Source of the DNA: Acidobacteriota bacterium
GTDB lineage: Bacteria > Acidobacteriota > UBA6911
Reading direction: 5' to 3'
Assembly (NCBI GenBank): GCA_963664705.1
Contig: OY761556.1
Location: forward strand, 704,001-768,000
DNA length: 64,000 nucleotides
Under the pieces are notes generated by a model. It saw only the letters and a program-made list of their open reading frames with translations. It ran no database searches and had not been told where the DNA came from. Positions 34,415 through 49,695 of this stretch are shown here, piece by piece (the stretch's first letter is position 1; the number at the start of each line of letters is the position of its first letter). A program made the translations under genes and the position numbers.

Positions 34415-35464
34415 CTAAATGGAGTAATCTTCCAAAAATACCTGCGTTTCCTTCAGACTGACATATACTTCGTGATCGCGTTCCAACGCGAGAGAACGAT
34501 AGCGTTCCTGAGTCATTTCCACTCGCACGGAGTCTCCGGCTCGGGTGATCAATTCCACTTTAACCAGCGGGCCGGCACTATTGATATGCAGAACCTTTGC
34601 GCGCAAATGGTTGCTTCCATCCGGATGATGCGTGATGTCGAGTTGGTGTGGCCGCACATAGAGAACCGCGCTCCTTCCGGTGCCGGGCGCAGATTCGTCT
34701 CCGATATAGGGGATGCCGCCTTCAACCCTGCCATGGAACAGATTGACATTTCCGAGAAAGTTATAGACAAACGAATTTGCCGGGTGCTGGTAAATATCCT
34801 CGGGCGTCCCTGTCTGGGCAATTGTTCCTTTGTTCATAACGACAACGAGATCGGCGACCTCCAGTGCTTCTTCCTGGTCGTGTGTGACAAAGACGCTTGT
34901 AATATGAATTTCATCGTGAAGCCTCCGCAGCCAGCGTCGAAGCTCATACCTCACTTTGGCATCAAGCGATCCGAATGGTTCGTCCAACAATAGGACTTTG
35001 GGTTCAACGGCGAGGGCTCTTGCGAGAGCCACACGCTGCCTTTGTCCTCCGGATAGTTGCGATGGGAGCCGGTTCGCCATTGATCGGAGTTGAACCAGGT
35101 CCAGAAGGTTGTTTACTTTCGTCTGAATCTCGCCGGATGAAGGACGCTCCTTCCGGGGTTTTACCCGGAGGCCGAAAGCGATATTCTCAAAAACGGTCAT
35201 GTGGCGAAACAAGGCATAGTGCTGAAAGACAAAGCCAACTCCGCGTTCACGAGCGTGTCTCAAGGTTGCATCATTTGCATCAAACGAAAGGTTTCCGCTA
35301 TCGGGAAATTCGAGCCCCGCAATAATGCGCAGCAAGGTTGTTTTTCCGGAGCCGGAAGGGCCTAGCAGGGCAACCAATTGGCCGGAGGGGATCGTCAAGC
35401 TGATGTTGCTGAGTGCACTAAAATTGCCAAATGTTTTTGCGATGTTATTCAATTCGATGTTCAT
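34415..35464 (-). CDS. cysA: Sulfate ABC transporter ATP-binding protein
   Basis: [24 protein letters not shown] motifs, TOBE tail; sulfate operon context. Confidence 0.95.
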
Positions 35465-35470
35465 CGAAGC

Positions 35471-36382
35471 CTACTCCGGTGCGATATTTGAGGTGGATGG
35501 CGTGTTGACGTGTCGCCGGCCTTGCCAGTCTATGATCGCTTTGGCCGCAAGGGTGATCAATGCGAGCAGCGCAAGCAGGGATGCCACTGCAAAGGACGCA
35601 ACAAACTGGTAATCGTTATAAAGTACTTCCACATGCAACGGCATTGTATTGGTCAATCCGCGGATATGTCCCGATACAACCGAAACCGCGCCAAACTCGC
35701 CCATCGCGCGCGCATTACATAAAATAATTCCATACAATAGTCCCCACTTCACATTGGGCAGGGTTACCAGCCAGAAGGTCTTCCAACCGCTGGCTCCCAG
35801 GATAAGCGCTGCCTCTTCCGCATCGCTGCCCTGTGCCTGCATGGATGGAATCAACTCGCGGGCGGCATAGGGAAAGGTTACAAATATGGTTGCCAGGATG
35901 ATCCCTGGCACGCTGAAAACAATCTGCAGATTGTGTGCGTCAAGCCATGGGCCCAGAAGCCCCCTGGCCCCAAAGAGAAGAATAAAGAGCATGCCGGAAA
36001 TGACTGGGGAGATGCTGAAAGGCAAGTCAATCAGGGAGAGTATGAAGCTCTTGCCCCGGAAATCAAACTTGGTGATTGCCCAGGAGGCTGCCAGCCCGAA
36101 CAGCACGTTGAGCGGTACGGCAATCAGGGCGGTTATCAAAGTCAGCTTAATGGCCGACCAGGCATCCGGCTCGGATATTGCCTCCCAGTATTTGGCAAAG
36201 CCCGTTTCCAGCGCCTTGGCAAATACGGTGAAGAGCGGAATCACCAGAAACAATCCCAGAAACAGCAATGCGGTCAGCGTCAGAGCCCATCGGATTATTG
36301 GAGATTCCGTGGTGTTCCGTGACTGGATCGTGCCATTCCGGATTTGAGTGGATGGAGCGTTGGCCAATGGGGATCTCCTCAA
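35471..36382 (-). CDS. cysW: Sulfate ABC transporter permease CysW
   Basis: IDLPFSISPVISG, ARAMGEFGAVSVVSGHIRG. Confidence 0.95.
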   Translation of the reverse strand: MRRSPLANAPSTQIRNGTIQSRNTTESPIIRWALTLTALLFLGLFLVIPLFTVFAKALETGFAKYWEAISEPDAWSAIKLTLITALIAVPLNVLFGLAASWAITKFDFRGKSFILSLIDLPFSISPVISGMLFILLFGARGLLGPWLDAHNLQIVFSVPGIILATIFVTFPYAARELIPSMQAQGSDAEEAALILGASGWKTFWLVTLPNVKWGLLYGIILCNARAMGEFGAVSVVSGHIRGLTNTMPLHVEVLYNDYQFVASFAVASLLALLALITLAAKAIIDWQGRRHVNTPSTSNIAPE

Positions 36383-36387
36383 TGATA

Positions 36388-37215
36388 TTATCTGGAAAGC
36401 CTGGTTCGATATCCCTGGGCAAAGTTGATGGCAAGAAGCAGTGTGAAGGAGGCCAGCAGAAATACCAGGGCGATCGCGCTGGCTTCAGCGTAATTAAACT
36501 GCTCAAGCTTGATCATGATCAGCAGGGGCGTAATCTCGGTGCGCATGGGCATATTGCCCGAGATGAAAATCACCGATCCGTATTCTCCCAGGCCGCGCGC
36601 AAAGGCAAGCACAAAACCGGTAAGTAACGCGGGGGCGAGTTCCGGAAGCAAAACCCGCGTAATCGTCTGAAAACGGGTAGCCCCCAGGCTGACGGCTGCT
36701 TCTTCGACATCAGCGTCCATAGCCTGCAATACCGGCTCAACCGTGCGGACGACAAAGGGGAGCCCAATGAAGACAAGAGCGATGGTGATTCCCAGCGGCG
36801 TATAGGCTGCTTTGATCCCGAATCCATGAAGAATTTTTCCGATCCATCCGGTTTCGGAATAAAGCGTTGTGAGCGCTATGCCGGCGACCGCCGTGGGCAA
36901 GGCAAACGGAAGGTCCACCAGCCCATCAATCAGCTTCTTGCCTGGGAATTTGTAGCGTACCAATACCCAGGCCACAAGCAGCCCGAAAAAGGTGTTCACC
37001 AGGGCTCCTGCAAAGGATGCGCCAAAGCTGAGGCGATAGGAGGCCAATGCGCGAGGAGTCGACACCGTGGCCCAGAATTGCCCCCAGCTCAGGGACATCG
37101 TTTTGATCACGAGAGTCGATAGGGGAATCAGCACAACAATGCCGAGATAGAGCACCGCATAGCCGAGAGATCCGGCAAAACCGGGAATGATGCTCCGTTT
37201 CTTGAGAATGATCAT
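36388..37215 (-). CDS. cysT: Sulfate ABC transporter permease CysT (CysU)
   Basis: VDLPFALPTAVAG, FARGLGEYGSVIFISGN. Confidence 0.95.
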   Translation of the reverse strand: MIILKKRSIIPGFAGSLGYAVLYLGIVVLIPLSTLVIKTMSLSWGQFWATVSTPRALASYRLSFGASFAGALVNTFFGLLVAWVLVRYKFPGKKLIDGLVDLPFALPTAVAGIALTTLYSETGWIGKILHGFGIKAAYTPLGITIALVFIGLPFVVRTVEPVLQAMDADVEEAAVSLGATRFQTITRVLLPELAPALLTGFVLAFARGLGEYGSVIFISGNMPMRTEITPLLIMIKLEQFNYAEASAIALVFLLASFTLLLAINFAQGYRTRLSR

Positions 37216-37275
37216 CGATCCTCTTTCTTAAGGAAGCATAAGCGCGTCAACACGATCGGGTTCTCTGTCGCTTGC

Positions 37276-38283
37276 CTAGGGGTGATAGATCCGGTCGAAA
37301 ACGCCACCGTCATCAAAATGCGTTTTCTGGGCTTTTTGCCAACCGCCAAGCTGGTCAATTCCCACGAGCGTTGACTTTTGAAAGATATTCGAATATCTGG
37401 CTGCTATCGTTGCATTCCGCGGACGGTAGTAGTGGCGGGCCGCAATCTCCTGACCTTCCTCGGTGTATAGATATTCGAGATAGGCCTGGGCCGCTGTCAG
37501 AGAGCCTTGCCTTTTAGCATTTTTATCCACCACTGCAACGGGTGGTTCGGCCAGTATCGTGACTGAAGGCATCACGATATCAAAGTTGCCTTTGCCTATT
37601 TCCTTTACGGTTAATAGCGCTTCGTTTTCCCATGCGATCAGGACATCCCCTATGCCTCGCTCGACAAATGTGGTGGTCGCTCCGCGCGCACCGGTATCGA
37701 GAACGGGAACATTTTTGAATATGGATGTAATGAACTCCTGTGCTTTCTTCTCGTCATTGCCCCATCGCTTCAAGGCATAGCTCCAGGCGGCCAGATAGTT
37801 CCATCTGGCTCCTCCGGATGTTTTGGGATTAGGCGTTATTACCGATATCCCCGTCTTTGCCAGGTCATCCCAATCCTTTATTTTTTTGGGGTTTCCTTTC
37901 CGAACCAGGAAGACGATGGTTGAGGTATAGGGAGCGCTGTTGTTCGGCAGCCGCTTTTCCCAGTTGACGTCAAGGAGTCCGGCCTTGGCGATGGCATCTA
38001 CATCGTAGGCAAGCGCCAGCGTGACAACATCTGCGCGAAGTCCATCAATAACGGCTCGTGCCTGTTTCCCGGATCCTCCGTGTGACTGGCGAATCGTTAC
38101 GGCCTGTCCCGTTCGGGCTTTCCAGTGCTTGGTGAAGGCCGCGTTGAAATCCTGGTACAGCTCGCGCGTGGGATCATAGGAAACATTCAGGAGCGTCAGG
38201 TTTCCCTGGGCTAGGGCTGAAGTGAAGGTTGCAACGACAAAAGCAATAAAGATAAGAAACCCGCGGATTCGTATATTCATCAT
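37276..38283 (-). CDS. sbp: Sulfate-binding periplasmic protein
   Basis: [35 protein letters not shown]; start moved to ATG 38283 after GGGAG. Confidence 0.95.
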
Positions 38284-38348
38284 GCCAAAACTCCCAATAT
38301 GCTTGCGGTGCCTTGTTAGTGGCCCCTGAACGGCTCTTGGACCAGAGT

Positions 38349-40130
38349 TCATATGGCAAACTCTGGTAGAATCTCTTCCTTTCTAAGAGCATTTTCTGCC
38401 TGTCGGGAAGCTTCAACCGGGTCCTCGGTTGAGATATGAAGGTCTTCGCCTTCATCCCGGTGCATCCCGGTGCTTATTCGGATTGCAAGTATTTCCTGCG
38501 GAAGAACGAGTTCCCGCAGTATTCGCAGTTCGTGTCGATCCACCTCTGGCATGGCGGTTATAAAGATCAGGCCACTGTCTGTCATGATCCGGGCCAATTC
38601 CCCCAACCTCCGAATGCTTTCTTCCCTGCGGTCAAACGTGTCGGCCACGTCTGATCCAATCCCTTTGTCCATGCTGGATACGCCAAGGTAGTAGGAGAAA
38701 AAGCCGGCATTGAACAACCGCTTTTCGAGTGCTTTGCCGACTGATTTGACATGCTCTTCTGAAGGGCCGGTCAGAAACACGAATTTGGATTTATGGCCGT
38801 GTCGCGCTTCGCGGGTGTTGAGAGGGATCGAGCCCAGTTCCCAGGCCGCTTCTCTTTCTGCGACATGCTCTGCTACGAGTGGTTGTCCAGAGGAGGCCGC
38901 TTCGAGCACGATGCCTCCACCGGCTATCTCGTAATTGTCGACGATGACGAAGCGTCCGGTTCCCTCATGATTAGTGAAGAGATCGAATGCCAGGGGTTTT
39001 ACTGTCTGGAGGATGCACTCGCCGATATCGTGGCGCTCCAATTCGTTTTTGCCTTTTTCTGCTTTCAAGTCTGCGGCGTTCAGAACGTGATTCACCCTGG
39101 AAAGATATGCCGGCACACGCGCTGCCGCGAGTTTCAGCTTGTATTTCTTGCCGGTGATCATTGGAGTTTTGCCAAGCCAGAATATATGTACGCGCAGGTT
39201 CGATCCGACTATCACTGAAGGCTCGGAATATTTACACATAATTTCGCCGGGCCGGATATACAACTCTTCCGTAAACGTAACTCCGACTGCCTGGCCTGCG
39301 GATGCGCTGAACCCGGGCGGTCGGTTGAACGATTCGATGCTTTTGATCGTGGACTTCTTTTCAGAAGGATAGAAAACCACCGGGGTTCCAACGGAAACGG
39401 ATCCGGTTTCAATTGTGCCTGCCAGGATGCGCCGGTCATCTGCTTCCTCGGTAAATTTGTACACATCCTGCACCGCGAATCGAAATGGCTGTTCTTCTTT
39501 TCCCGCTTCCTTCGTGAATGAATCCAGAAAATCGAGGGCGGTGAGTCCCTTGTACCACTCCGCTTTTTGCGTCAGATTGATGCCTTCCCGGGCGGAGACT
39601 GGCACAAATCCGAATGGATGCAACCCGATCTCTGCAAGGAATGCGGTATATTCCTGCCGGATCCGTTCAAAAACGGTCATATCGAAACCGACAAGATCCA
39701 TCTTGTTTACCAGGACGACAATCTGGCGAATTCCCAGCATCGACAGAAGGTATCCATGCCGGCGGGAGTTTTCGCGTACTCCTTCTTTGGCGTCGATCAC
39801 CAGGAGCGCCGCTTCTGCACGGGCTGCGCCGGTTACCATATTCTTAAGGAACTCGATATGACCGGGCGCGTCGAGAATGATGTAATCGCGTTGCGCGGAT
39901 TTGAAGAAGCATCGGGCGGTATCAATGGTTATGCCTTGTGCCTGTTCGTCTTTGAGTGCGTCCAGAAGGAATGCGTATTCAAAGGGGCGTGCATTCCGCT
40001 CGCACATTGCCTGAACTTGTGCGAGTTTTCCCTGGGGCAGCGATCCTGTATCCGCAAGTAGCCGCCCTATGACCGTGCTTTTGCCGTGATCCACATGACC
40101 AACAACTACTATATTCATCTGTTCGCGCAT
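38349..40130 (-). CDS. cysN: Sulfate adenylyltransferase GTPase subunit with a degenerate APS-kinase-like C-terminal domain
   Basis: [27 protein letters not shown]; C-terminal CysC-like domain with a broken P-loop. Confidence 0.9.
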
Positions 40131-40153
40131 CCGATTGCTCCAACGATATCGTT

Positions 40154-41035
40154 CTACATGTATCCTTCACGGCGCAGCGTTTCGAGGCCCCCGCCATCTT
40201 CCTTGTCCTGCGCACGCCCCGAGCGTTCCGCGATATTTGCGAATTTCCCGGTTCGCAGCTCCTCGATGATTTCCCTGACCGTACGCGCCTCGGAATCCAC
40301 CGCATGCGTACAGGGATAGCAGCCGAGAGAGCGATAACGCTTCCCGTCCCCCTGGTTGAAATACAGGGAGACAACGCCTATGCCTTCCCGCTCGATGTAC
40401 TCCCAGATATTCAGTTCCGTCCAATCAAGAAGCGGATGCACTCGTACATGAGTTCCCGGGGCAAAATCTGTTTTGAACTGATTCCATAGCTCGGGCGGCT
40501 GGTCTGCGATGTCCCATTCGTTGTCTTTGTCCCGCGAGGAGAAATAGCGCTCTTTCGAGCGACTGCCCTCTTCATCCGCGCGCACGCCGACGATCACTCC
40601 GGTATAGGGTTCCTGATGGAGCTCGCTTACATATTTCCCGGTGGAATGATCCATTCTGTAGCGGGGCCATTCGCCGGAAAGTGTTCGTTTGAGCGCTTCG
40701 CTTTTCAGGTTGCGGCAGCAGGCAATGCGATCGGCATTTCCATCCGGAAAGGTTTCCCGGCACCGGATAGCCTCAGCATTTTCACCGTAGACCATATTCA
40801 GTTTCCATTCTTTGGCCAGGCGATCCCTGTACCGGATCATTTCCGGAATTTTGAAATGTGTGTCTATGTGGACAAGCGGAAATGGTACATGGCCAAAAAA
40901 AGCTCGCCGGGCCAGCCAAAGGAGCACAGTGCTGTCCTTGCCGATCGACCAGAGCATGCAGAGATGTTTGAACTCCCGATAGGCCTCTCTCAGGATATAG
41001 ATGCTTCTTGCTTCCAATTTGTCGAGTGTATCCAT
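40154..41035 (-). CDS. cysD: Sulfate adenylyltransferase subunit 2
   Basis: [24 protein letters not shown]-terminal LRREGYM. Confidence 0.93.
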
Positions 41036-41046
41036 GGCTGTCCTCT

Positions 41047-41700
41047 TTACTGATCGCTATGTAGTCCGCACTCCATCCCATGCTGAGATGTTCCAGCAAA
41101 TCTCCCTGCGCGTTCGGAATCCCCGCCTTTGGATGTGCAGGGCAGGCATCCAAGCGAGGCATATCCCTGGTTGTACAGCGGGTGATAGCTGAGATTATTC
41201 TGCACGATGTAATTCCAGACATCTTCCTTGGTCCAGAATGCAATGGGATTGATTTTGGTGATCCGGCCTTCTGACAGAATGGGGGTGTCTTTCCTTAGCT
41301 CATTTTCATCGCGCCGCAGACCGGTTATCCAGGCGTCAAATTGAGGGAGAATGAGCGAAAGCGCGGGAGCTTTCATTTCGCAGCATTTATAGCGATCGTT
41401 CCTGATCGTGTGCTCTCCGAACTCGGTTTCTATCCGCTGACGCTCTGCATCCGGCGGCTCAATCCATCGGAAATGCATTCCGGTTTCCGCGACCAGTTGG
41501 TTTGCGTAGGCGAGGGTTTCCGGAAACTCGTAGCCGGTATCGATGCCAATGAACGGGACGTCTTTATTTACCTGCATGACGAGATCCACCAGCACCCGAG
41601 AGTCTTTACCAAATGAGCAGGAGGCAAATACCCTCGAATGTCTGGCAATGGCAACCTCTATGATAAATTTAGATAATTCGACTTTCTCCCAGAGCTTCAT
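41047..41700 (-). CDS. cysH: Adenosine 5'-phosphosulfate (APS) reductase, CysH family
   Basis: SFGKDS, KCCEMK plus GCLPCT (Fe-S ligands), ECGLH tail; GGAGA SD before ATG 41700. Confidence 0.9.
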
Positions 41701-42526
41701 TGATGTCTCCTGAATGGGTATAGAAAGGGATCGCTGCAAAAAGTTGTTCAGGCGCATTTCCTTCATGCCAGTTTAAGACCGGACTGAGCCGGACCACATT
41801 CCCGACTATCACCAGCATTGGTGTTGCCGGGTTCACATCGGTTACACCGGCGTCGATATCCTCAAGCGTCCCCAATACGGTTTGCTGATCCGGCAGCGTT
41901 GCTCTGCTGATGACCGCAATCGGAGTGTTGGGGGCGAGGCCGCCCGCCATCAGCGAACAGACGATTTCAGCCAGTTGCAGCCCGCCCATGTAAACCACCA
42001 GTGTGTCCACGGATTTGGCAATATCGGATAAGGATCGGTTCTTCGGGGCGGTCCTGAAATCCCTTGGAGTTACAAATGCAATTGAAGAGGAGATCGCGCG
42101 GTGAGTCAGCGGGATGCCCGAATAGCTGGCGGCCCCCAGTGCGGAGGTGACTCCGGGTATGATCTCAAAACGGATCCCGTGTTGCTTGCAGGCAAGAGCT
42201 TCTTCCCCTCCGCGTCCGAACAGAAGAGGATCGCCTCCCTTCAGTCTCACGACCGTCTTGCCCGATTTGGCAGAGGCAATGATCCTTTCATTGATGGCCC
42301 ACTGTTCCATCGCCCGCTTGCCGCAGCGCTTCCCGACAAAGACCCTTTCGGCTCCATGCCCGGCATATTGAAATATTTCCGGGTTGACGAGCGCATCGTA
42401 AAAGATGATGTCCGCCTTGCGAAGGGCCTGCATGCCTTTGATTGTGAGCAGATCGACGGCTCCAGGGCCCGCTCCCACGATAAAAACCTGGGGCATATCC
42501 AATTTGGTGGCAGCCTTTCTATTCAT
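41669..42526 (-). CDS. cobA: Uroporphyrinogen-III C-methyltransferase (SUMT)
   Basis: VGAGPG, VRLKGGDP, FGRGGEE, IPGVTS, IPLTHR. Confidence 0.93.
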   Translation of the reverse strand: MNRKAATKLDMPQVFIVGAGPGAVDLLTIKGMQALRKADIIFYDALVNPEIFQYAGHGAERVFVGKRCGKRAMEQWAINERIIASAKSGKTVVRLKGGDPLLFGRGGEEALACKQHGIRFEIIPGVTSALGAASYSGIPLTHRAISSSIAFVTPRDFRTAPKNRSLSDIAKSVDTLVVYMGGLQLAEIVCSLMAGGLAPNTPIAVISRATLPDQQTVLGTLEDIDAGVTDVNPATPMLVIVGNVVRLSPVLNWHEGNAPEQLFAAIPFYTHSGDINEALGESRII

Positions 42527-43130
42527 CGATCCGAATCCTCCCTGGCTGAGCCTGATCCATCTGATCCAGTACGCGGCGAATAACCGCTTTACGCTCCTGC
42601 ATATCTTCGGGAATGTGGATTTTAAGATGTCTGCGCAACTGACCTAGTTCTATGGCGAATGCATCCAGGGTGGCTGGCAGCACTTCCTCGAGCCGCTCCC
42701 GCAACCATGCCGCGAGGACCGGACTGTTGCCGTCGGTGGAAATGGAGATTTTCAGTGCGCCGCGATCCACAATGGCGGGGAAGAAGAAATCGCTTTGCTC
42801 CGCCTGATCGACAATGTTGCACAGTATGTTCCGGCGATTTGCTTCTTCGAAGATTGTCTGCTGGACTGTTCGGTCATTGGTTGCGCCTATGACGATCGAA
42901 TAGGCGTTGCAAATATCCGAACGCAATAGCGGCCGCTGATGAAGCTGAAGGGAACCCTCAACCGCAAGATCAACGATGGACGGCATGGCCTCACGGGCGA
43001 TTACCGTGACTTTTGCCGAGGCCGACAGCATTTGTGATATACGAGTGAATGCCGTTTTTCCGCCTCCAACGATCAATACATGTCGACCGCTCAATTTCAG
43101 TGAGATTGGGAAGGTTTGACTGGTGGGCAT
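42519..43130 (-). CDS. Precorrin-2 dehydrogenase / sirohydrochlorin ferrochelatase (SirC / CysG N-terminal type)
   Basis: VLIVGGG NAD-binding motif, CNIVD, ISTDGNSP; start placed at MPTSQTFP. Confidence 0.88.
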   Translation of the reverse strand: MPTSQTFPISLKLSGRHVLIVGGGKTAFTRISQMLSASAKVTVIAREAMPSIVDLAVEGSLQLHQRPLLRSDICNAYSIVIGATNDRTVQQTIFEEANRRNILCNIVDQAEQSDFFFPAIVDRGALKISISTDGNSPVLAAWLRERLEEVLPATLDAFAIELGQLRRHLKIHIPEDMQERKAVIRRVLDQMDQAQPGRIRIDE

Positions 43131-43352
43131 AGGCCTTGTTCCGAACTCCGGTTCATTCGCGATGACGCGCTGAAAAAACTTTAGAATTGAAGGATAGAGC
43201 CTTGGATTGCATGGCGGATATGCGTCATGAATTTTCAGGCCTGCCTCAATCCGGTATATGGAAACATGCAAGATCGTATGCATTTATGTATGCGGACGAT
43301 CTCAAGTAGTGGAAGCAGAAAGGAATGGATGCCGACGGGCTTGTATCGTGGT

Positions 43353-43457
43353 CTAGGACGCTGCGCAAGTCCATGCCGCGAGCCATGCCGTCGGCCGTCT
43401 ACAACAGCATCCGGGGCGGTTAGCGGTCTGGAATGTGCTTCTGCGTAATGAACTCAT
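43353..43457 (-). CDS. Putative leaderless polycysteine leader peptide MSSLRRSTFQTANRPGCCCRRPTAWLAAWTCAAS (34 aa)
   Basis: Translated by hand; TGC TGT TGT codons; the ATG follows the -10 hexamer of a consensus-like promoter after a 7-nt spacer; located ahead of the siroheme/cys operon. Confidence 0.7.
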   Translation of the reverse strand: MSSLRRSTFQTANRPGCCCRRPTAWLAAWTCAAS

Positions 43458-43464
43458 GGCGCAA

Positions 43465-43493
43465 ATTCTAAAGATGGGAAGTGTGAGTGTCAA
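43465..43493 (-). promoter_or_regulatory. Sigma70 promoter of the cys operon
   Basis: Minus strand TTGACA (43493-43488), 17-nt spacer, TAGAAT (43470-43465). Confidence 0.8.
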
Positions 43494-43595
43494 TAAAAAT
43501 GTGATAAAAAGGTGCCACAAAGTAGTAGAAGCGAATGGAGGAGTTCATAAAATAAGGAGCCGGGCACTATAAAAGCAAAAACCTATGGTAATAAC

Positions 43596-43624
43596 TTGAC
43601 ACGATATGCTTGGCATTGTACAAA
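43596..43624 (+). promoter_or_regulatory. Possible sigma70 promoter of the sulfite reductase gene
   Basis: TTGACA, 17-nt spacer, TACAAA. Confidence 0.45.
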
Positions 43625-43674
43625 GCGTCGAATCGGCAACGATGGATCGGCTATTGGGGAAAAGGCAAAGAATT

Positions 43675-45375
43675 ATGGGGAACCCAGACTACGCTTTCCC
43701 GTTGGAACTGAAAACGGATATTGACGAATACGAACGGAATGTCCGGGCGTTTCTTTCGGCGGGAATGGAGCCTGAAATATTCAAGGCAAAAAGAGTGCCA
43801 TATGGCGTTTATGAGCAAAGAAATGACGGGACCTATATGGTTCGCGTCAGGGTTACGGCCGGGCGTCTGACCTGTGAGCAGGTCCGAGTGTTGTCCGATT
43901 TGTGCATGGCCTTTGGCGATGGACGGCTGCACATTACCACGCGGCAAGACATTCAGTTTCATAGCGTGTCTATTGGGGAAACCCCGATTATCATGAGGCG
44001 ACTTCTTGAAGTGGGCCTTACCACCAAAGGGGGGGGCGGGAATACGGTTAGAAATATCACCGCATGTCCCTATGCCGGCATATGCCCCAACGAAAACCTG
44101 GATGTAAACCCACAGGCACATCAACTGACGGATTACCTTATACGGCAGGCCGGCAGCTACACGCTTCCGAGAAAATACAAGATCTCGTTCAGCGGTTGCG
44201 GGGCCGATTGCGGTCTGGCGCAAATAGCGGACCTTGGATTCATCGGCGCAATAAGACATGGAAGGCCGGGTTTCCATGTATTCGCGGGTGGCGGTTTGGG
44301 TGTCAGTTCCAGGATTGGCGCGCCGTTACTGCATTGGGTACCGACGACAGATGTGATCCGGATTGCCGAATCTGTGCGAAGAGTATTTGACCGGCACGGA
44401 GATCGCAGCAACCGAAGTCGTGCCCGGCTGCGTTTTGTTGTGGAGAGGCTCGGAGAATCGCCCTTCCGAGATGCATTTCGCGGCGAATTCGATAAGATAA
44501 TCAGAAACGGTGTTCCTGAGTCCGTTAGCTCGAATCTGCGGCGAGAGCGCGAGGCCATTCAGCCGCAGACTCCGATTCTTGAAAAAGGCTGTGGGATACG
44601 CTACCTGAAGCAGGTTCAGGATGGATACATAACGATTCCGCTCCACATAAAACTGGGGCTTGTTTCCGCAGAAGAGTTTGCGCGGCTTGGCGATCTGGCT
44701 GCGCGCTTTAGCGAAAGCCGGGATATTTACGCCACTCGAGCGCAGGGACTTCAATTGCGATTTGTCAAAGAGGAAAATCTGCCTTTGCTGGCAGGAGAAT
44801 TACTGCAAATGAAGGCCGACTATATTGACCGCGGATCATTGACCCAGCGAATAGTATCCTGCACCGGAGCTGATACCTGCCGATTGGGGCTTTGTCTCTC
44901 GCGAAATGCTTCGCTCGCCTGCGAAGAGCGACTCAAGGAAAGCGGCATTATAGAGAAGGAGCTTAAAGGACTGTCCATCTTCATCAACGGCTGCCCCAAT
45001 GGTTGCGGTCATCAGCCCATCGCGCCTGTCGGCTTTTCGGGATGTGCCCAGCGAGTTGATGGTCGCCTGGTGCCTGCCTATAAAGTAACACTTGGGGGAA
45101 GGTGCGAATTCCAGCGTGCACGGCTTGGCATTGCTATCGGTCAAATACCTGCAAAAGCGATACCTGCTTTTCTATGCGCGCTGGCCGCCGATTTCGGCGA
45201 GAAGGGGGGCGCGGGGGAAGCCTTCTCCAATTATTTCGACCGCATGGGCAAAGCCCATTTTGTGAATATTCTGAATCGACACGCGACCGTGCCGCGTTTT
45301 GAAGATGCGCCGGACTACTACTTTGATTTCGGAGCCGACGAATTGTTTTCGCTTGTCCGGCGAGACAGCAAATAG
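43675..45375 (+). CDS. Ferredoxin-dependent sulfite (or nitrite) reductase, siroheme/4Fe-4S
   Basis: YMVRVR, HITTRQDIQ, LPRKYKI, SCTGADTC and NGCPNGC ligand motifs; divergent from the cys operon; start moved from 43606 to 43675 because a promoter overlaps the longer start. Confidence 0.88.
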   Translation: MGNPDYAFPLELKTDIDEYERNVRAFLSAGMEPEIFKAKRVPYGVYEQRNDGTYMVRVRVTAGRLTCEQVRVLSDLCMAFGDGRLHITTRQDIQFHSVSIGETPIIMRRLLEVGLTTKGGGGNTVRNITACPYAGICPNENLDVNPQAHQLTDYLIRQAGSYTLPRKYKISFSGCGADCGLAQIADLGFIGAIRHGRPGFHVFAGGGLGVSSRIGAPLLHWVPTTDVIRIAESVRRVFDRHGDRSNRSRARLRFVVERLGESPFRDAFRGEFDKIIRNGVPESVSSNLRREREAIQPQTPILEKGCGIRYLKQVQDGYITIPLHIKLGLVSAEEFARLGDLAARFSESRDIYATRAQGLQLRFVKEENLPLLAGELLQMKADYIDRGSLTQRIVSCTGADTCRLGLCLSRNASLACEERLKESGIIEKELKGLSIFINGCPNGCGHQPIAPVGFSGCAQRVDGRLVPAYKVTLGGRCEFQRARLGIAIGQIPAKAIPAFLCALAADFGEKGGAGEAFSNYFDRMGKAHFVNILNRHATVPRFEDAPDYYFDFGADELFSLVRRDSK

Positions 45376-45666
45376 TAATGGCGCCCAGCCGGATTGGCTG
45401 CTTTTGATTTGTCCTATTCACCCACATGGTTGTTTGATCGGCATCACAATCCATTCGCGAGGTGCGTCCACTTTCTGCTTCATTCTTTCGCAATTCTCAT
45501 AGAGATCATCGCAGTGAGTAAAACTACCGATGCCCAATTAGGTATTTTTGCCGGTAAGTAAATAGCTGCCTCCTCCCGTCATAAGAGCTGAACACAAGAA
45601 GCATAACTGGCCCAATTGGACGCCCGCGTTGGGTTTGTGATCTCAACTGTACGTTGGAGATATGAC

Positions 45667-48600
45667 ATGAATAGATGCAGATGGTTAATGTACGTGTGCC
45701 TGCTGGCAGCAGCGGGCGTGCAGTGGTTCTGTATGGACGGGACTGCCCAGGCACAGACGAACAGCGAAAATGCGAAAGCGAAACGTAGAATTACGCAGGC
45801 TGAAAGAGAGGCTGCAGCCAACAGGCTGAAAGAGATGAAGGCAGCGGCCTCTGCCAATTCCAAAAATGCGGCGCAGGCATCTTCCGGTGCCACGAAGGCG
45901 GCGAAGCCGGCCGCTTCTTCATCCGGCCGACAGGTTGCAGGTCGCACTCCATCCGCGGCCGCGCTTGCTGCCGGTGCCGGGCTTCAGGTCGGAGCCAACG
46001 GATATCTTATCCCCGATTATTTTGGCAGCGGGAATTGGGCTTTCAGCCCGCCGATCAGGAAGTTCGTTGACACATTGCCCGGAGTTGGATCGGGTGGTTC
46101 GAACAACCTGGGCAACTACCTGCCTGTGGCCGTGCCTGAAGTGCTTGCGGCTTCCGGCGGGACTCCGGAATCGGACTATTATGTCCTTGCCCTTGTGGAA
46201 TTCAGCCAACAGATGCACCGGGATCTGGCACCCACGAGATTGAGGGGATATGTTCAGTTGGAAAGACCCGCGATTCAGGGGGCCGGCTCACATTATCCTT
46301 TGGTGTATCCGGACGGCTCGGCCATCAGGGATGCCAATGGGAACCAGCTTTATGCCATGGACAAACCCCGGTATCTGGGACCCTTGATTCTCTCTCAAAA
46401 GGACCGTCCCGTACGCGTCAAATTCATCAATAAGCTGCCACGCGGTTCCGCCGGTAATCTTTCCATTCCGACCGATACCAGTGTGATGGGGGCGGGCCCG
46501 GGGCCCAATGCCGCCTGGGGATCGGCAGGGCCGGATATCCTGTGCAAAGCCGATCCTGTTAGTGGCGCCATCCCCTATGACTGTTTTACTCAAAACCGTG
46601 CCACGCTCCATCTGCACGGCGGCCTGACGCCCTGGATTAGTGATGGAACCCCGCATCAGTGGATCACTCCTGCGGGTGAGTTGACGCCTTACGTCAAGGG
46701 AGTCAGCCTGTATAACGTTCCGGATATGCCCAATCCCGGCGATGGGGCCAACCTCGATTGCACCAGCCCGGCCGGAGATTTCTGCGGCGCTCAGACCTTC
46801 TACTGGACGAACCAGCAGAGTGCCCGAATGCTGTTTTACCATGACCACGCATCCGGACTCACACGCCTCAATGTTTACGTCGGCGAAGCAGCGGGTTACC
46901 TGATCAGCGATCCGACGGAGGCCGCCCTAGTGGCGGACGGTATCATTCCCGGGAATCAGATTCCGCTCGTCATTCAGGATAAGAGTTTCGTGGATGCCAC
47001 GCCTCTTCCTGACGGCACTCCCACCATTCTCCGGGATGATCCTACCTGGAATTGGGGGACCGGTTCATTGGCTGCGGCAAACGCCTCGGGTTATCGCCAG
47101 CGAACGCCCATAACGGGAGATCTCTGGTATCCGCATGTTTATTCACCCGCGCAAAATCCTCAGGATGCTCTCGGACTCAATGCCTATGGTCGCTGGATGT
47201 ATGGGCCATGGTTTTTCCCGCCGACCACCAACATTACTTATCCTCCGGTTGCCAATCCCTATTACGATTGCGGTCCCGGCGGGCCATGCACGGCACCCTG
47301 GCAGCCGTCTCTAATGCCGGGGACGCCTCAGCCGTCCGCTCCCGGAGAATCCTTCATGGATACGGCAATGGTGAACGGTGCGGCATTTCCTACCGTTACA
47401 CTGGATCCCAAAAGCTATCGTTTCCGGATTCTGAATGCGGCTAACGATAGATTCTTCAATCTGTCCATGTATCTGGCAGACTCTTCGGTCACCAGTGCCG
47501 ATGGCCGAACCAATACGGAAGTTAAGGTTGTTCCCGCCGCCGCCACCGCCGGTTTCCCGGCGAAATGGCCGACCGACGGGCGCGATGGGGGAGTTCCGGA
47601 CCCGGCAACGATGGGGCCGGACTGGGTTCAAATTGGGAATGAAGCCGGTTTTTTGCCCGCTCCGGCGGTGATCCCGCCGCTTCCGACCATCTTCAATGCT
47701 GATCCGACGCAGTTCACCTTTGGGAACGTGATTGATCATTCGCTGCTGCTGGCACCGGCCGAGCGCGCCGACGTTATCGTCGATTTCTCAGCCTATGCCG
47801 GGAAGACCCTGATTCTGTACAATGACGCTCCCGCTGCCTTCCCCGCGCGCGATCCTCGCGTCGATTATTTCACCGATGCCCCGGATCTTCGCTCTACCGG
47901 TGGACACAGTGGACCCAAAGCCGGCTTTGGTCCCAATACGCGCACCGTAATGCAGATCGTCATCAGAAACACAACTCCGGATCCGGCCTTTAATCTTGCA
48001 GCTCTGCAGGCCAGATTCAATCCAACCAACGGGGCAACCGGTGTGTTTGCAAGCTCGCAAAACCCGGTTATTGTCGGGCAGAGTGATTATGATACCGCCT
48101 ACAATAAGACTTTCCCCGCCACCTACCCGAATTGGGGAAAAGTGACCATCGATATGTGGAATCTGCCCTTCGAGACTGTGGATGGCCGATCCATGACAAT
48201 CCCGCTTCAGCCAAAGGCTATGCACGATGAAATGGGCGCAGCCTACGATGAATACGGAAGAATGAGCACCAAACTAGGCCTCGAGATGTTGCCTCCCACT
48301 GCAACCACCCAGAATTTCATTCTGCGCAGCTATATCGACCCACCGAGCGAAATCATCTCGGATTCAGGGACGGTTGGCTATCCGCAACTGGGGGATGGAA
48401 CACAGATATGGAGAATCACACATCATGGAGTCGACACTCACCCGATTCACTTCCATCTCTTTGATGTTCAGGTCATCAATCGCATTGGTTGGGATAACCT
48501 GATCATTCCCACAGACCCCAACGAATTGGGGTGGAAGGAAACTGTTCGAATCAGCCCGTTGCAGGATACGATTGTTGCATTGAGACCGGTTGCCCCCAAG

Positions 48601-49695
48601 TTGCCTTTTGGCATACCGGACAGCAACCGTCCATTGAATCCAGCAATGCCGCTGGGCTCTCCGGATGGATTCAGTAATGTCGGACCCGATGGCAATGCGC
48701 TGCCATCCCCGGTAACCAACCAGATCATGAATTTTGGTTGGGAATACGTGTGGCATTGCCACATCCTGAGCCATGAAGAGATGGACATGATGCGGCCGAT
48801 CTATTTCTCGGTTGCGCAGGTGGCTCCCGCGGCACCGACCCTCAATTCCGTGACCGCGCCCGCAATTGCACCGCCGACTGCCTTGCAGATCAACCTTGTG
48901 TTCCATCGTAATTCAACCAACGAGATAGGATTTCAGATCCAGCGCGCTACCGCGTTGGCTGGTCCGTTCAGCAATGTCGGGTCGGCGCTGGCAAATGCAA
49001 CATCCTATATCGATAAAACCGTCCTGCAGGGTAGAACGTACTTCTACCGGGTTGTCGCCTACAATGCCCAGGGAAACTCCGCCTCGTCGAATGTTCTCTC
49101 CGCTACCACCGCGGCCAGGATTCCTTCGATTCCCACCGGGTTGATCCCTTCCGCGACAGCAACCCCATCGCTGCGTGTGAACCTGACCTGGACGATTGTC
49201 GACGCCAATCTGACTGGGGCAACGATCCAGAGGGCGACCAATCTCGGATTTACCGCCGGGTTGACCACGTTTGCCGTCAATTCGGCCAATCCAACGGCTT
49301 ATACCGACATGACGGTAGCGGCCAACAGCACCTATTATTACCGTGTTGCGGTAACCAATTCCGCCGGAACATCGGCTTATTCAGCGGCAGTAATTGTTGT
49401 GACTCCCGGCGCTCTGGCTGCTCCGACAAACCTGAGGACCACGCTTGTGGTACAAAGGACCACCGGACAGAATAACGGGCGAATCATTCTTGCCTGGAAT
49501 GCAACGGCGGGCGCTTCCGGTTATCAAGTGTGGAGAAGCGTCAACGGCGGCGCATTTGCGCAGGTTGGAACAACCACGCTGACAACCTTCCAAAACAGCA
49601 ATCTGGCCGCGGGCACCTATCTTTACGAGGTGCGCGCAACCAATGGCACTGTGCTTTCACCTTTTTCAAACATTTTGACCGTAGTGATTAATTGA
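45667..49695 (+). CDS. Large secreted multicopper oxidase (CotA/MofA/OmpB-like) with three C-terminal fibronectin type III domains
   Basis: All four Cu motifs present: HLHGG, FYHDHA, HPIHFH, WHCHILSHEEMDMM; signal peptide; GGAGA SD before ATG 45667. Confidence 0.9.
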   Translation: MNRCRWLMYVCLLAAAGVQWFCMDGTAQAQTNSENAKAKRRITQAEREAAANRLKEMKAAASANSKNAAQASSGATKAAKPAASSSGRQVAGRTPSAAALAAGAGLQVGANGYLIPDYFGSGNWAFSPPIRKFVDTLPGVGSGGSNNLGNYLPVAVPEVLAASGGTPESDYYVLALVEFSQQMHRDLAPTRLRGYVQLERPAIQGAGSHYPLVYPDGSAIRDANGNQLYAMDKPRYLGPLILSQKDRPVRVKFINKLPRGSAGNLSIPTDTSVMGAGPGPNAAWGSAGPDILCKADPVSGAIPYDCFTQNRATLHLHGGLTPWISDGTPHQWITPAGELTPYVKGVSLYNVPDMPNPGDGANLDCTSPAGDFCGAQTFYWTNQQSARMLFYHDHASGLTRLNVYVGEAAGYLISDPTEAALVADGIIPGNQIPLVIQDKSFVDATPLPDGTPTILRDDPTWNWGTGSLAAANASGYRQRTPITGDLWYPHVYSPAQNPQDALGLNAYGRWMYGPWFFPPTTNITYPPVANPYYDCGPGGPCTAPWQPSLMPGTPQPSAPGESFMDTAMVNGAAFPTVTLDPKSYRFRILNAANDRFFNLSMYLADSSVTSADGRTNTEVKVVPAAATAGFPAKWPTDGRDGGVPDPATMGPDWVQIGNEAGFLPAPAVIPPLPTIFNADPTQFTFGNVIDHSLLLAPAERADVIVDFSAYAGKTLILYNDAPAAFPARDPRVDYFTDAPDLRSTGGHSGPKAGFGPNTRTVMQIVIRNTTPDPAFNLAALQARFNPTNGATGVFASSQNPVIVGQSDYDTAYNKTFPATYPNWGKVTIDMWNLPFETVDGRSMTIPLQPKAMHDEMGAAYDEYGRMSTKLGLEMLPPTATTQNFILRSYIDPPSEIISDSGTVGYPQLGDGTQIWRITHHGVDTHPIHFHLFDVQVINRIGWDNLIIPTDPNELGWKETVRISPLQDTIVALRPVAPKLPFGIPDSNRPLNPAMPLGSPDGFSNVGPDGNALPSPVTNQIMNFGWEYVWHCHILSHEEMDMMRPIYFSVAQVAPAAPTLNSVTAPAIAPPTALQINLVFHRNSTNEIGFQIQRATALAGPFSNVGSALANATSYIDKTVLQGRTYFYRVVAYNAQGNSASSNVLSATTAARIPSIPTGLIPSATATPSLRVNLTWTIVDANLTGATIQRATNLGFTAGLTTFAVNSANPTAYTDMTVAANSTYYYRVAVTNSAGTSAYSAAVIVVTPGALAAPTNLRTTLVVQRTTGQNNGRIILAWNATAGASGYQVWRSVNGGAFAQVGTTTLTTFQNSNLAAGTYLYEVRATNGTVLSPFSNILTVVIN

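Follow-up and report, generated by a model that had tools for sequence, protein, structure and literature searches.

A conserved upstream ORF with consecutive cysteine codons and a predicted ribosome-controlled hairpin precedes a sulfate-assimilation operon in Acidobacteria

The predicted sulfate-assimilation operon on the minus strand of the analysed window (64,000 nt of the genome of an Acidobacteriota bacterium, contig OY761556.1, positions 704,001–768,000) is preceded by a short upstream ORF (uORF) that carries three consecutive cysteine codons and is followed by a long hairpin. Judging from sequence comparison with ten other leaders, it is real and conserved, and very probably a cysteine-sensing uORF. 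According to the proposed mechanism, the mRNA would begin at the ATG or no more than about 3 nt from it and would be translated without a Shine–Dalgarno (SD) sequence. When Cys-tRNA is scarce, the ribosome would wait on the Cys codons, segment B would be free to pair with segment C, and the nine sulfur genes would be transcribed. When cysteine is plentiful, the ribosome would cover B and bar the hairpin, leaving open a C-rich region of about 50 nt that extends from the stop codon to the end of tract D; Rho would load on this open RNA and terminate transcription in the 200-nt interval ahead of the first gene. The first three steps, a cysteine-sensing uORF with a hairpin relay, appear highly probable from the sequences and the folding models. 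Given these steps, the chances that Rho is the output are about even, and the complete model, in which the hairpin hides a Rho loading site when the ribosome stalls, is rated slightly below an even chance.

The elements of the leader lie close together on the minus strand. The sequence-only reading had described a promoter TTGACA-17-TAGAAT followed after 7 nt by an ATG with no SD sequence, and all of these are present: the −35 hexamer TTGACA at 43488..43493, a 17-nt spacer, the −10 hexamer TAGAAT at 43465..43470, matching the consensus in 11 of 12 positions, and, 7 nt further, the ATG at 43457, with no SD pairing in the 14 nt 5′ of it. Transcription is predicted from the sequence to start at or next to 43457. 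For three Acidobacteria, the available part of an earlier survey predicts that 13.3% of genes are leaderless (PMC3160421). The uORF, the predicted sensor, has 34 codons (43353..43457; the stop ends at 43353), and codons 17–19, TGC TGT TGT at 43401..43409, form the Cys-Cys-Cys run, as had also been read. The fourth Cys noted in that reading is indeed present, at codon 31, but its position is not kept in the other 10 leaders.

Chance is a poor explanation of such a run. Among 10,740 intergenic ATG ORFs of 20–45 aa in the same genome, only 26 (0.24%) contain Cys-Cys-Cys. The genome has 29 strict promoter-plus-start sites, 13 of which open ORFs shorter than 60 aa; two of these 13 contain Cys-Cys, and both belong to the family of terminator-less leaders described here. 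The promoter count by itself does not exceed that in shuffled sequence (1 observed, 2.0 expected). Rfam curated covariance models, including T-box, SAM riboswitches and named leaders, gave no matches with E up to 5 in the interval 42900–43900, and a Pfam search with the leader peptide gave no match.

The family of terminator-less leaders comprises 11 distinct members, eight of them in 6 of the 51 genomes of one Acidobacteria family and three on metagenome contigs; by source, three belong to the window genome (G000), five to its relatives and three to the metagenome contigs. As was found by the BLASTN search, the window genome has a paralogue before cysK-cysE, and the relative G009 has an orthologue before cysK-cysE. 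A scan upstream of 30 of the 66 cysK matches revealed leaders at five loci (G000, G009, G007, G002 and G034, the last from another genus of the same family), a pattern search revealed the third copy in the window genome, before a gene of a Cys/Met PLP enzyme, a pattern scan of metagenomes added the leaders of L116, L147 and L131, and a covariance model found the leader of G013. Ten of the 11 leaders precede cysteine or sulfur genes, in seven cases cysK, and the eleventh, that of G013, heads an operon of DUF2325 and molybdopterin oxidoreductase genes. The search for Cys-run short ORFs elsewhere, proposed as a check in the sequence-only reading, has thus uncovered a run conserved in frame before cysteine and sulfur genes. 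A second covariance model (R2) added no member and separated the family sharply, with 54–91 bits for the members, 86 bits for the leader of the window and 30 bits or less for the next match. The carriers are only 6 of the 51 family genomes and 5 of the 30 cysK loci examined. Contigs from sequencing runs revealed no variant sites.

Other candidates were rejected. Eleven weaker R2 matches and one viral match were inspected, and none linked a Cys ORF to cysteine genes; the viral match, the single one on viral contigs, was judged to be a non-member. Only one of 28 pattern matches on genome contigs, the G009 leader, lay by cysteine genes, as did four of 49 metagenome matches, from which L141 was dropped as a repeat of G009; the others were taken as chance. 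Cys-pair ORFs near cysK in G029 and G003 had neither the promoter nor the hairpin. No convincing member was found outside the family in 137 genomes of the class, 151 relatives and 401 genomes of the phylum searched with a loose pattern, many of these genomes being incomplete; the loose pattern matched in 71 of the 401, and three of the likeliest matches lacked the layout of promoter and start.

All 11 leaders share TTGAC[A/T], a spacer of 17–18 nt, a −10 box and, 6–10 nt after it, an ATG without SD pairing; the −10 box starts with TA in 10 of them. In seven leaders the −10 box lacks the final T, and an upstream TG is present in those seven. The short first ORF has two or more consecutive Cys codons in every leader, and the run is in frame with the ATG, without intervening stops, at spacings of 13, 14 or 16 codons. 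The terminal two Cys codons are TGT TGT in all cases, and TGT makes up 24 of the 33 codons of the runs, compared with 30% of Cys codons genome-wide. All three tRNA-Cys genes of the window genome have the anticodon GCA, and reading of the TGT codons by wobble could sharpen the sensing. The pN/pS ratio of six collinear members is 0.98 for codons 2–15 and 0.66 for codons 20–33, against 0.10 for cysK, and the Cys codons are invariant, synonymous sites included, while codons 2–15 drift. Such near-neutral N-terminal codons next to unchanged Cys codons indicate, at the level of sequence comparison, that selection acts on the codons and the RNA and not on the peptide. The position of the stop also varies (ORFs of 22–37 aa), and two members stop right on segment B. 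The length of the hairpin is fixed at 62–68 nt, whereas the next start follows at distances of 76 to 200 nt; in the window this gap is the largest of the family (200 nt), and the SD is weak.

The hairpin itself occupies 43331..43395 on the minus strand and encloses the second half of the ORF together with the stop codon. Its 5′ arm, segment B (43388..43395), begins 5 nt past the last Cys codon, a distance fixed in all 11 leaders, and its 3′ arm is segment C (43331..43338). The predicted energy is −31.0 kcal/mol (z −2.5) in the window and ranges from −24.5 to −36.4 kcal/mol (z −1.5 to −4.2) across the leaders. Pairing is better between the arms of one leader than between arms exchanged among leaders (B:C, p = 0.012; inner stem, p = 0.003), p-values that overstate the effect since the leaders are kin. 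Covariation points in the same direction: 6 of 14 pairs have changed on both sides, and only 2 of 500 shuffles score as high, a figure likewise overstated by kinship. In simulations without a ribosome, B:C re-forms with a pairing probability of 0.95 or more in 8 of the 11 leaders. A second hairpin (43270..43303, minus strand; −13.7 kcal/mol, z −4.1) has no U tract directly after it, its sequence is not conserved, and from the folding it could possibly be a pause site.

The sequence-only reading had suggested a switch, in which the segment 43340–43327 pairs either with B (43395–43388) or with segment A (43412–43405), which covers the Gly-Cys codons. Both pairings can indeed be drawn as mutually exclusive helices of 8 bp, and the long B:C hairpin is conserved and covaries, but A:C (−13.9 kcal/mol in the window) is weaker than B:C by 7 kcal/mol, is strong only in the window and is only partly conserved. 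The family-wide test of A with cognate partners gave p = 0.15; 69% of the cells are paired, a level reached by 43 of 500 shuffles. A core of 5 bp is paired in 8–11 of the 11 leaders, depending on the position, with one change on both sides (G007), and the covariation of A:C is not significant, since 74 of 500 shuffles reach its level. Segment A is thus a minor alternative partner of C, and A:C may be a transient state within either of the main models.

The effect of the ribosome was modelled by masking its footprint from the A-site codon during folding, the footprint being 7–10 or 13–16 nt from the A site. With 7–10 nt masked, the pairing of C with B is 0.36–1.00 when the ribosome is at the Cys codons, 0.52 or less two codons further on, and 0.00 at the stop codon in all 11 leaders; the hairpin is lost one or two codons past the Cys codons in every leader. 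With 13–16 nt masked, the hairpin is tolerated at the first one or two Cys codons only. On opening, the expected number of unpaired bases in the 70 nt around C increases in all 11 leaders, from 42 to 55 in the window. The folding prediction contains the combination on which trp- and his-type leaders are recognised, control codons and an adjacent segment freed by stalling, and within these models the geometry is that of an anti-off element.

The first gene of the predicted operon (42519..43130, minus strand) encodes a siroheme dehydrogenase/ferrochelatase of the met8/cysG type with Pfam domains NAD_binding_7 and Sirohm_synth_M. Its start is probably ATG 43130, 200 nt beyond the hairpin: the Pfam domains are first matched at residue 61 of the longest ORF, and a homologue within the family has its start at the corresponding place. 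The remainder of the predicted operon (34415..42526, minus strand) comprises cobA, cysH, cysD, cysN(C), sbp, cysT, cysW and cysA, names inferred from the Pfam families and the gene order. After the met8/cysG-type dehydrogenase, the domains are TP_methylase, two PAPS_reduct, GTP_EFTU with APS_kinase, SBP, two BPD_transp_1, and ABC_tran with CysA_C, and these families fit the siroheme, cysH, cysD, cysN, sbp and cysTWA genes named earlier from the sequence.

A gene of sulfite/nitrite reductase (43606..45375, plus strand) is transcribed divergently. Relatives have a Cys leader at this gene, whereas on this side none is found in the window genome. A divergent promoter, TTGACA, 17 nt, TACAAA, was observed at 43596–43624 (plus strand), and since it overlaps the start of the longest ORF at 43606, the true start of the reductase is probably 43642 or 43675. 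By eye, a 1359-aa ORF further along the same strand (45616–49695) resembles a secreted multicopper-oxidase-type protein with repeat domains and is followed by a PEP-CTERM-type ORF.

The output step is less certain than the sensor. No intrinsic terminator was found in the leader between 43493 and 43130. Immediately after C lies tract D (43304..43330, minus strand), a candidate Rho loading site or anti-SD; this is the C/U-rich tract which the sequence-only reading had placed after the pairing segment, and it is there as a C/T tract, with 10 C and 3 G in 30 nt. In 10 of the 11 leaders, the 30 nt that follow segment C have an excess of C over G of +4 to +10, compared with −0.1 ± 3.9 in 3,618 background windows, and for seven leaders the C-richness of these 30 nt is in the top 5% of the background. 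The leader of G034 is unlike the other ten, its C-tract lying inside the hairpin and matching the G-run SD of its next gene. Segment C has no fixed partner downstream, its best partners being scattered from −84 to +28 around the start. The window genome has two matches to rho above the PF07497 cut-off (G000:C1:644007 and 3894087), which lie in open frames of 519 and 463 aa. Some features weigh on the Rho model. In 10 of the 11 leaders D is outside the hairpin, so about 27–30 C-rich bases would be single-stranded even when the ribosome stalls, and the open stretch of about 50 nt, of which the hairpin conceals only half, is below the 60–90 nt quoted for optimal rut sites in the available text of a review (PMC12360218). 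Rho would also need a kinetic window, because B:C re-forms once the ribosome leaves.

The strongest rival keeps the same sensor and hairpin and gives them a translational output: C and D, once freed by a ribosome running over B, would pair with the SD and start codon of the next gene, and polarity would silence the rest of the operon. It is a serious contender, though less probable than the model with Rho. In the masked foldings of six leaders, moving the ribosome from the first Cys codon to the stop closes the SD or AUG further, the unpaired probability falling from 0.66 to 0.05 for AUG 43130 in the window and from 0.70 to 0.03 in G002, and from 0.38 to 0.00 and from 0.50 to 0.08 for the SD in G034 and G013, respectively; four leaders, however, reveal no switch and one reveals the reverse. 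In 7 of the 11 leaders D pairs best, among downstream sites, with the region of the next start, and the core of D resembles an anti-SD; the best partner of C and D in the window is at the start codon, and the C-tract of G034 matches the SD, as noted above. The native SD is nevertheless no better a partner for D than SDs taken from other leaders (p = 0.64; C and D together, p = 0.61), in a test of low power since the SDs are all alike, and composition-shuffled D pairs equally well (mean z −0.4). Lying outside the hairpin in ten leaders, D would have to bridge 76–200 nt. The mycobacterial system is translational, as described in the available text of its report (10.1101/834739), and Rho output and SD hiding can act together. 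A toggle of C between B and the Gly-Cys codons, with A:C as the off state, appears unlikely. The perfect 8-bp helix in the window, the partly conserved core with its double change in G007, and the A after C, kept in 9 of the 11 leaders though B:C rarely needs it, speak for it, but they are outweighed by the energy deficit and the non-significant tests given above; A:C is moreover weak or absent in three leaders, has no evident off output and would hide part of D.

The two other alternatives concern the copy in the window and the nature of the signal. The family could be functional while the copy in the window is vestigial, a cysK-type leader left by rearrangement that is today no more than a long 5′ UTR. 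The same leader, divergent from sulfite reductase, leads to cysK-cysE or a cysE remnant in G009 and two metagenome contigs, and the gap of 200 nt and the weak SD of the window copy fit such a history. Against this, the window leader scores well within the range of the family, its promoter, open frame, codon run and perfect B:C helix are all kept, and it still leads to cysteine-pathway genes, and this reading is about as improbable as the toggle. Two contigs contain decayed genes behind intact leaders: at L131:1708-1870 a cysE remnant whose frame runs through a terminator, and at L116:1148-1363 a cysK without residues 25–291. Least probable of all is that the peptide itself acts, by metal binding or arrest like CruR, or that a repressor, for example of the Rrf2 type, binds the TGT-rich motif as DNA. 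Cys-Cys-Cys could bind metal, a Pro three codons past the run is invariant, and Rrf2 genes lie near related operons; but pN/pS is near 1 before the run, the peptide varies from 22 to 37 aa without a Pfam match, the Pro codon is always CCG and forms part of B, and the ATG and the motif share a frame at each of three spacings. A cysteine-sensing uORF with a hairpin relay is, on balance, the preferred reading, with Rho as its tentative output.

A second type of leader, a Cys-run ORF with an intrinsic terminator, was found at nine loci in the same Acidobacteria family. It lies before sulfite reductase in G009 and L131 and at the matching place in L116 (the gene being read in G009 and L131), after cysE or cysK in G009, L116 and G002, before cysD in G062, before met8-cobA in G035, and, in the window genome, as the second of a tandem pair whose first leader is terminator-less. 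Equilibrium folding always kept the terminator, and the antiterminators of these leaders were read by eye. In the tandem arrangement (L164; G000:C1:5000251-4999763, minus strand), a terminator-less Cys leader is followed by an SD-led 35-aa Cys-run ORF with an intrinsic terminator, before the gene of the Cys/Met PLP enzyme; an Rrf2-like gene is situated just upstream, and a tRNA-Cys gene is 2 kb away. The leaders at L031:4371-4190 (minus strand), in L131, at the matching place in L116 and at L154:1805 (plus strand) are near-leaderless Cys-rich ORFs with an intrinsic terminator and share a segment complementary to the 5′ arm of the terminator. In three loci the two types stand back to back. Cys-run ORFs with terminators also occur within operons, directly behind cysE or cysK, at L031:6400-6590 (plus strand), in L116 after cysE and at L157:4996 (minus strand), where they would make a second checkpoint. 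In G035, from another genus, the leader (L194:4431-4570, plus strand) heads met8-cobA, the two genes with which the operon of the window also begins. It may tentatively be proposed, at a level clearly below an even chance, that this lineage uses one ribosome sensor with interchangeable outputs, a Rho-gating hairpin relay and an intrinsic terminator, side by side on divergent genes and in tandem.

In the window genome, an ORF ending in three TGT codons (G000:C1:5012407, minus strand) lies about 190 nt before a large outer-membrane-receptor-like gene and a cluster of molybdopterin oxidoreductase, 4Fe-4S and aminotransferase genes, with no matching promoter seen; a similar cluster in G013 has a terminator-less leader. 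Matches to cysD occur in 11 genomes. The operons of G017 and G029 and the cysH operon of G007 are headed by an Rrf2-type gene (assigned with Pfam in G017), and no Cys ORF was found before these operons (L189, L190 and L191). Rrf2-headed sulfate-assimilation operons are an alternative control strategy in the same genus. No Cys ORF was found near cysD in G035, G034, G071, G068 and G074.

Several known systems resemble the leader in part. The sequence-only reading had proposed a mechanism analogous to that of mycobacteria in another lineage; a near-leaderless uORF with an in-frame Cys run before cysteine and sulfur genes agrees with this, but the Cys tract is not predicted to pair with an SD. As far as the accessible text of Canestrari et al. 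(10.1101/834739) describes them, the mycobacterial leaders Ms5788A and Rv2334A-cysK1-cysE likewise have a short ORF at the predicted 5′ end with consecutive Cys codons, precede cysteine genes including cysK-cysE, occur in several copies per genome and have no intrinsic terminator. In mycobacteria, however, it is the Cys tract that base-pairs with the SD of the following gene, and mutants without a start are locked off, according to the same text. In the folds of the window no such pairing occurs: the Cys codons pair locally or with C, about 200 nt short of the next start. In the Acidobacteria leader, from another phylum, the helix starts 5 nt past the Cys run and pairs inside the leader, most members carry the run in the middle of the ORF, and removal of the start is predicted to leave expression on.

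The proposed output has a precedent in the Salmonella genes mgtA (mgtL) and corA (corL), for which the text available of the review reports that stalling in the uORF gives a Rho-resistant fold; as is predicted for the Acidobacteria leader, stalling favours a fold that would hide C-rich RNA and fast translation opens it, and an intrinsic terminator is absent in both (PMC12360218). Their signal is Mg2+, as given there, whereas that of the Acidobacteria leader is predicted to be charged tRNA-Cys, its start is SD-less and Rho is a candidate only. The trp, his and Mycobacterium tuberculosis ilvB1 leaders (PMC13236596, as far as its accessible part goes) share control codons with, immediately behind them, an RNA segment whose downstream pairing is possible only during a ribosome stall, but the Acidobacteria leader has no terminator hairpin with a U tract, and its arm C has no conserved second partner. 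The cys and cbs leaders proposed for Actinobacteria also have a Cys run and no terminator, with pyrimidine tracts suggested as Rho sites, in the available portion of PMC1262725; that portion describes no conserved terminator hairpins and calls the prediction of Rho weak, whereas in the Acidobacteria leader the hairpin is conserved and the C-rich tract is fixed in position. The structural layout is new: it differs from the trp type in lacking an intrinsic terminator, and from that of mycobacteria in that no pairing of the Cys tract with the next SD is predicted.

In the literature searched, whose coverage left out most subscription journals, no Cys attenuator was reported in Acidobacteria, and the experimental cases of cysteine attenuation found were all from mycobacteria and acted by hiding the SD. 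Rho-dependent cysteine attenuation was proposed in 2005 and is not demonstrated in the literature searched. The element described here offers a direct test of that old proposal, and it makes a prediction for a non-start mutant opposite to that of the mycobacterial type. If the complete model is true, this would be the first Rho-gated attenuator of an amino-acid biosynthesis operon that is read via the cognate codons of a leaderless uORF. The leader also marks likely sulfur-supply genes, such as the operon of DUF2325 and molybdopterin oxidoreductase in G013. That a compact, covarying element of another layout exists in Acidobacteria suggests that the cysteine sensor was invented repeatedly, with different outputs.
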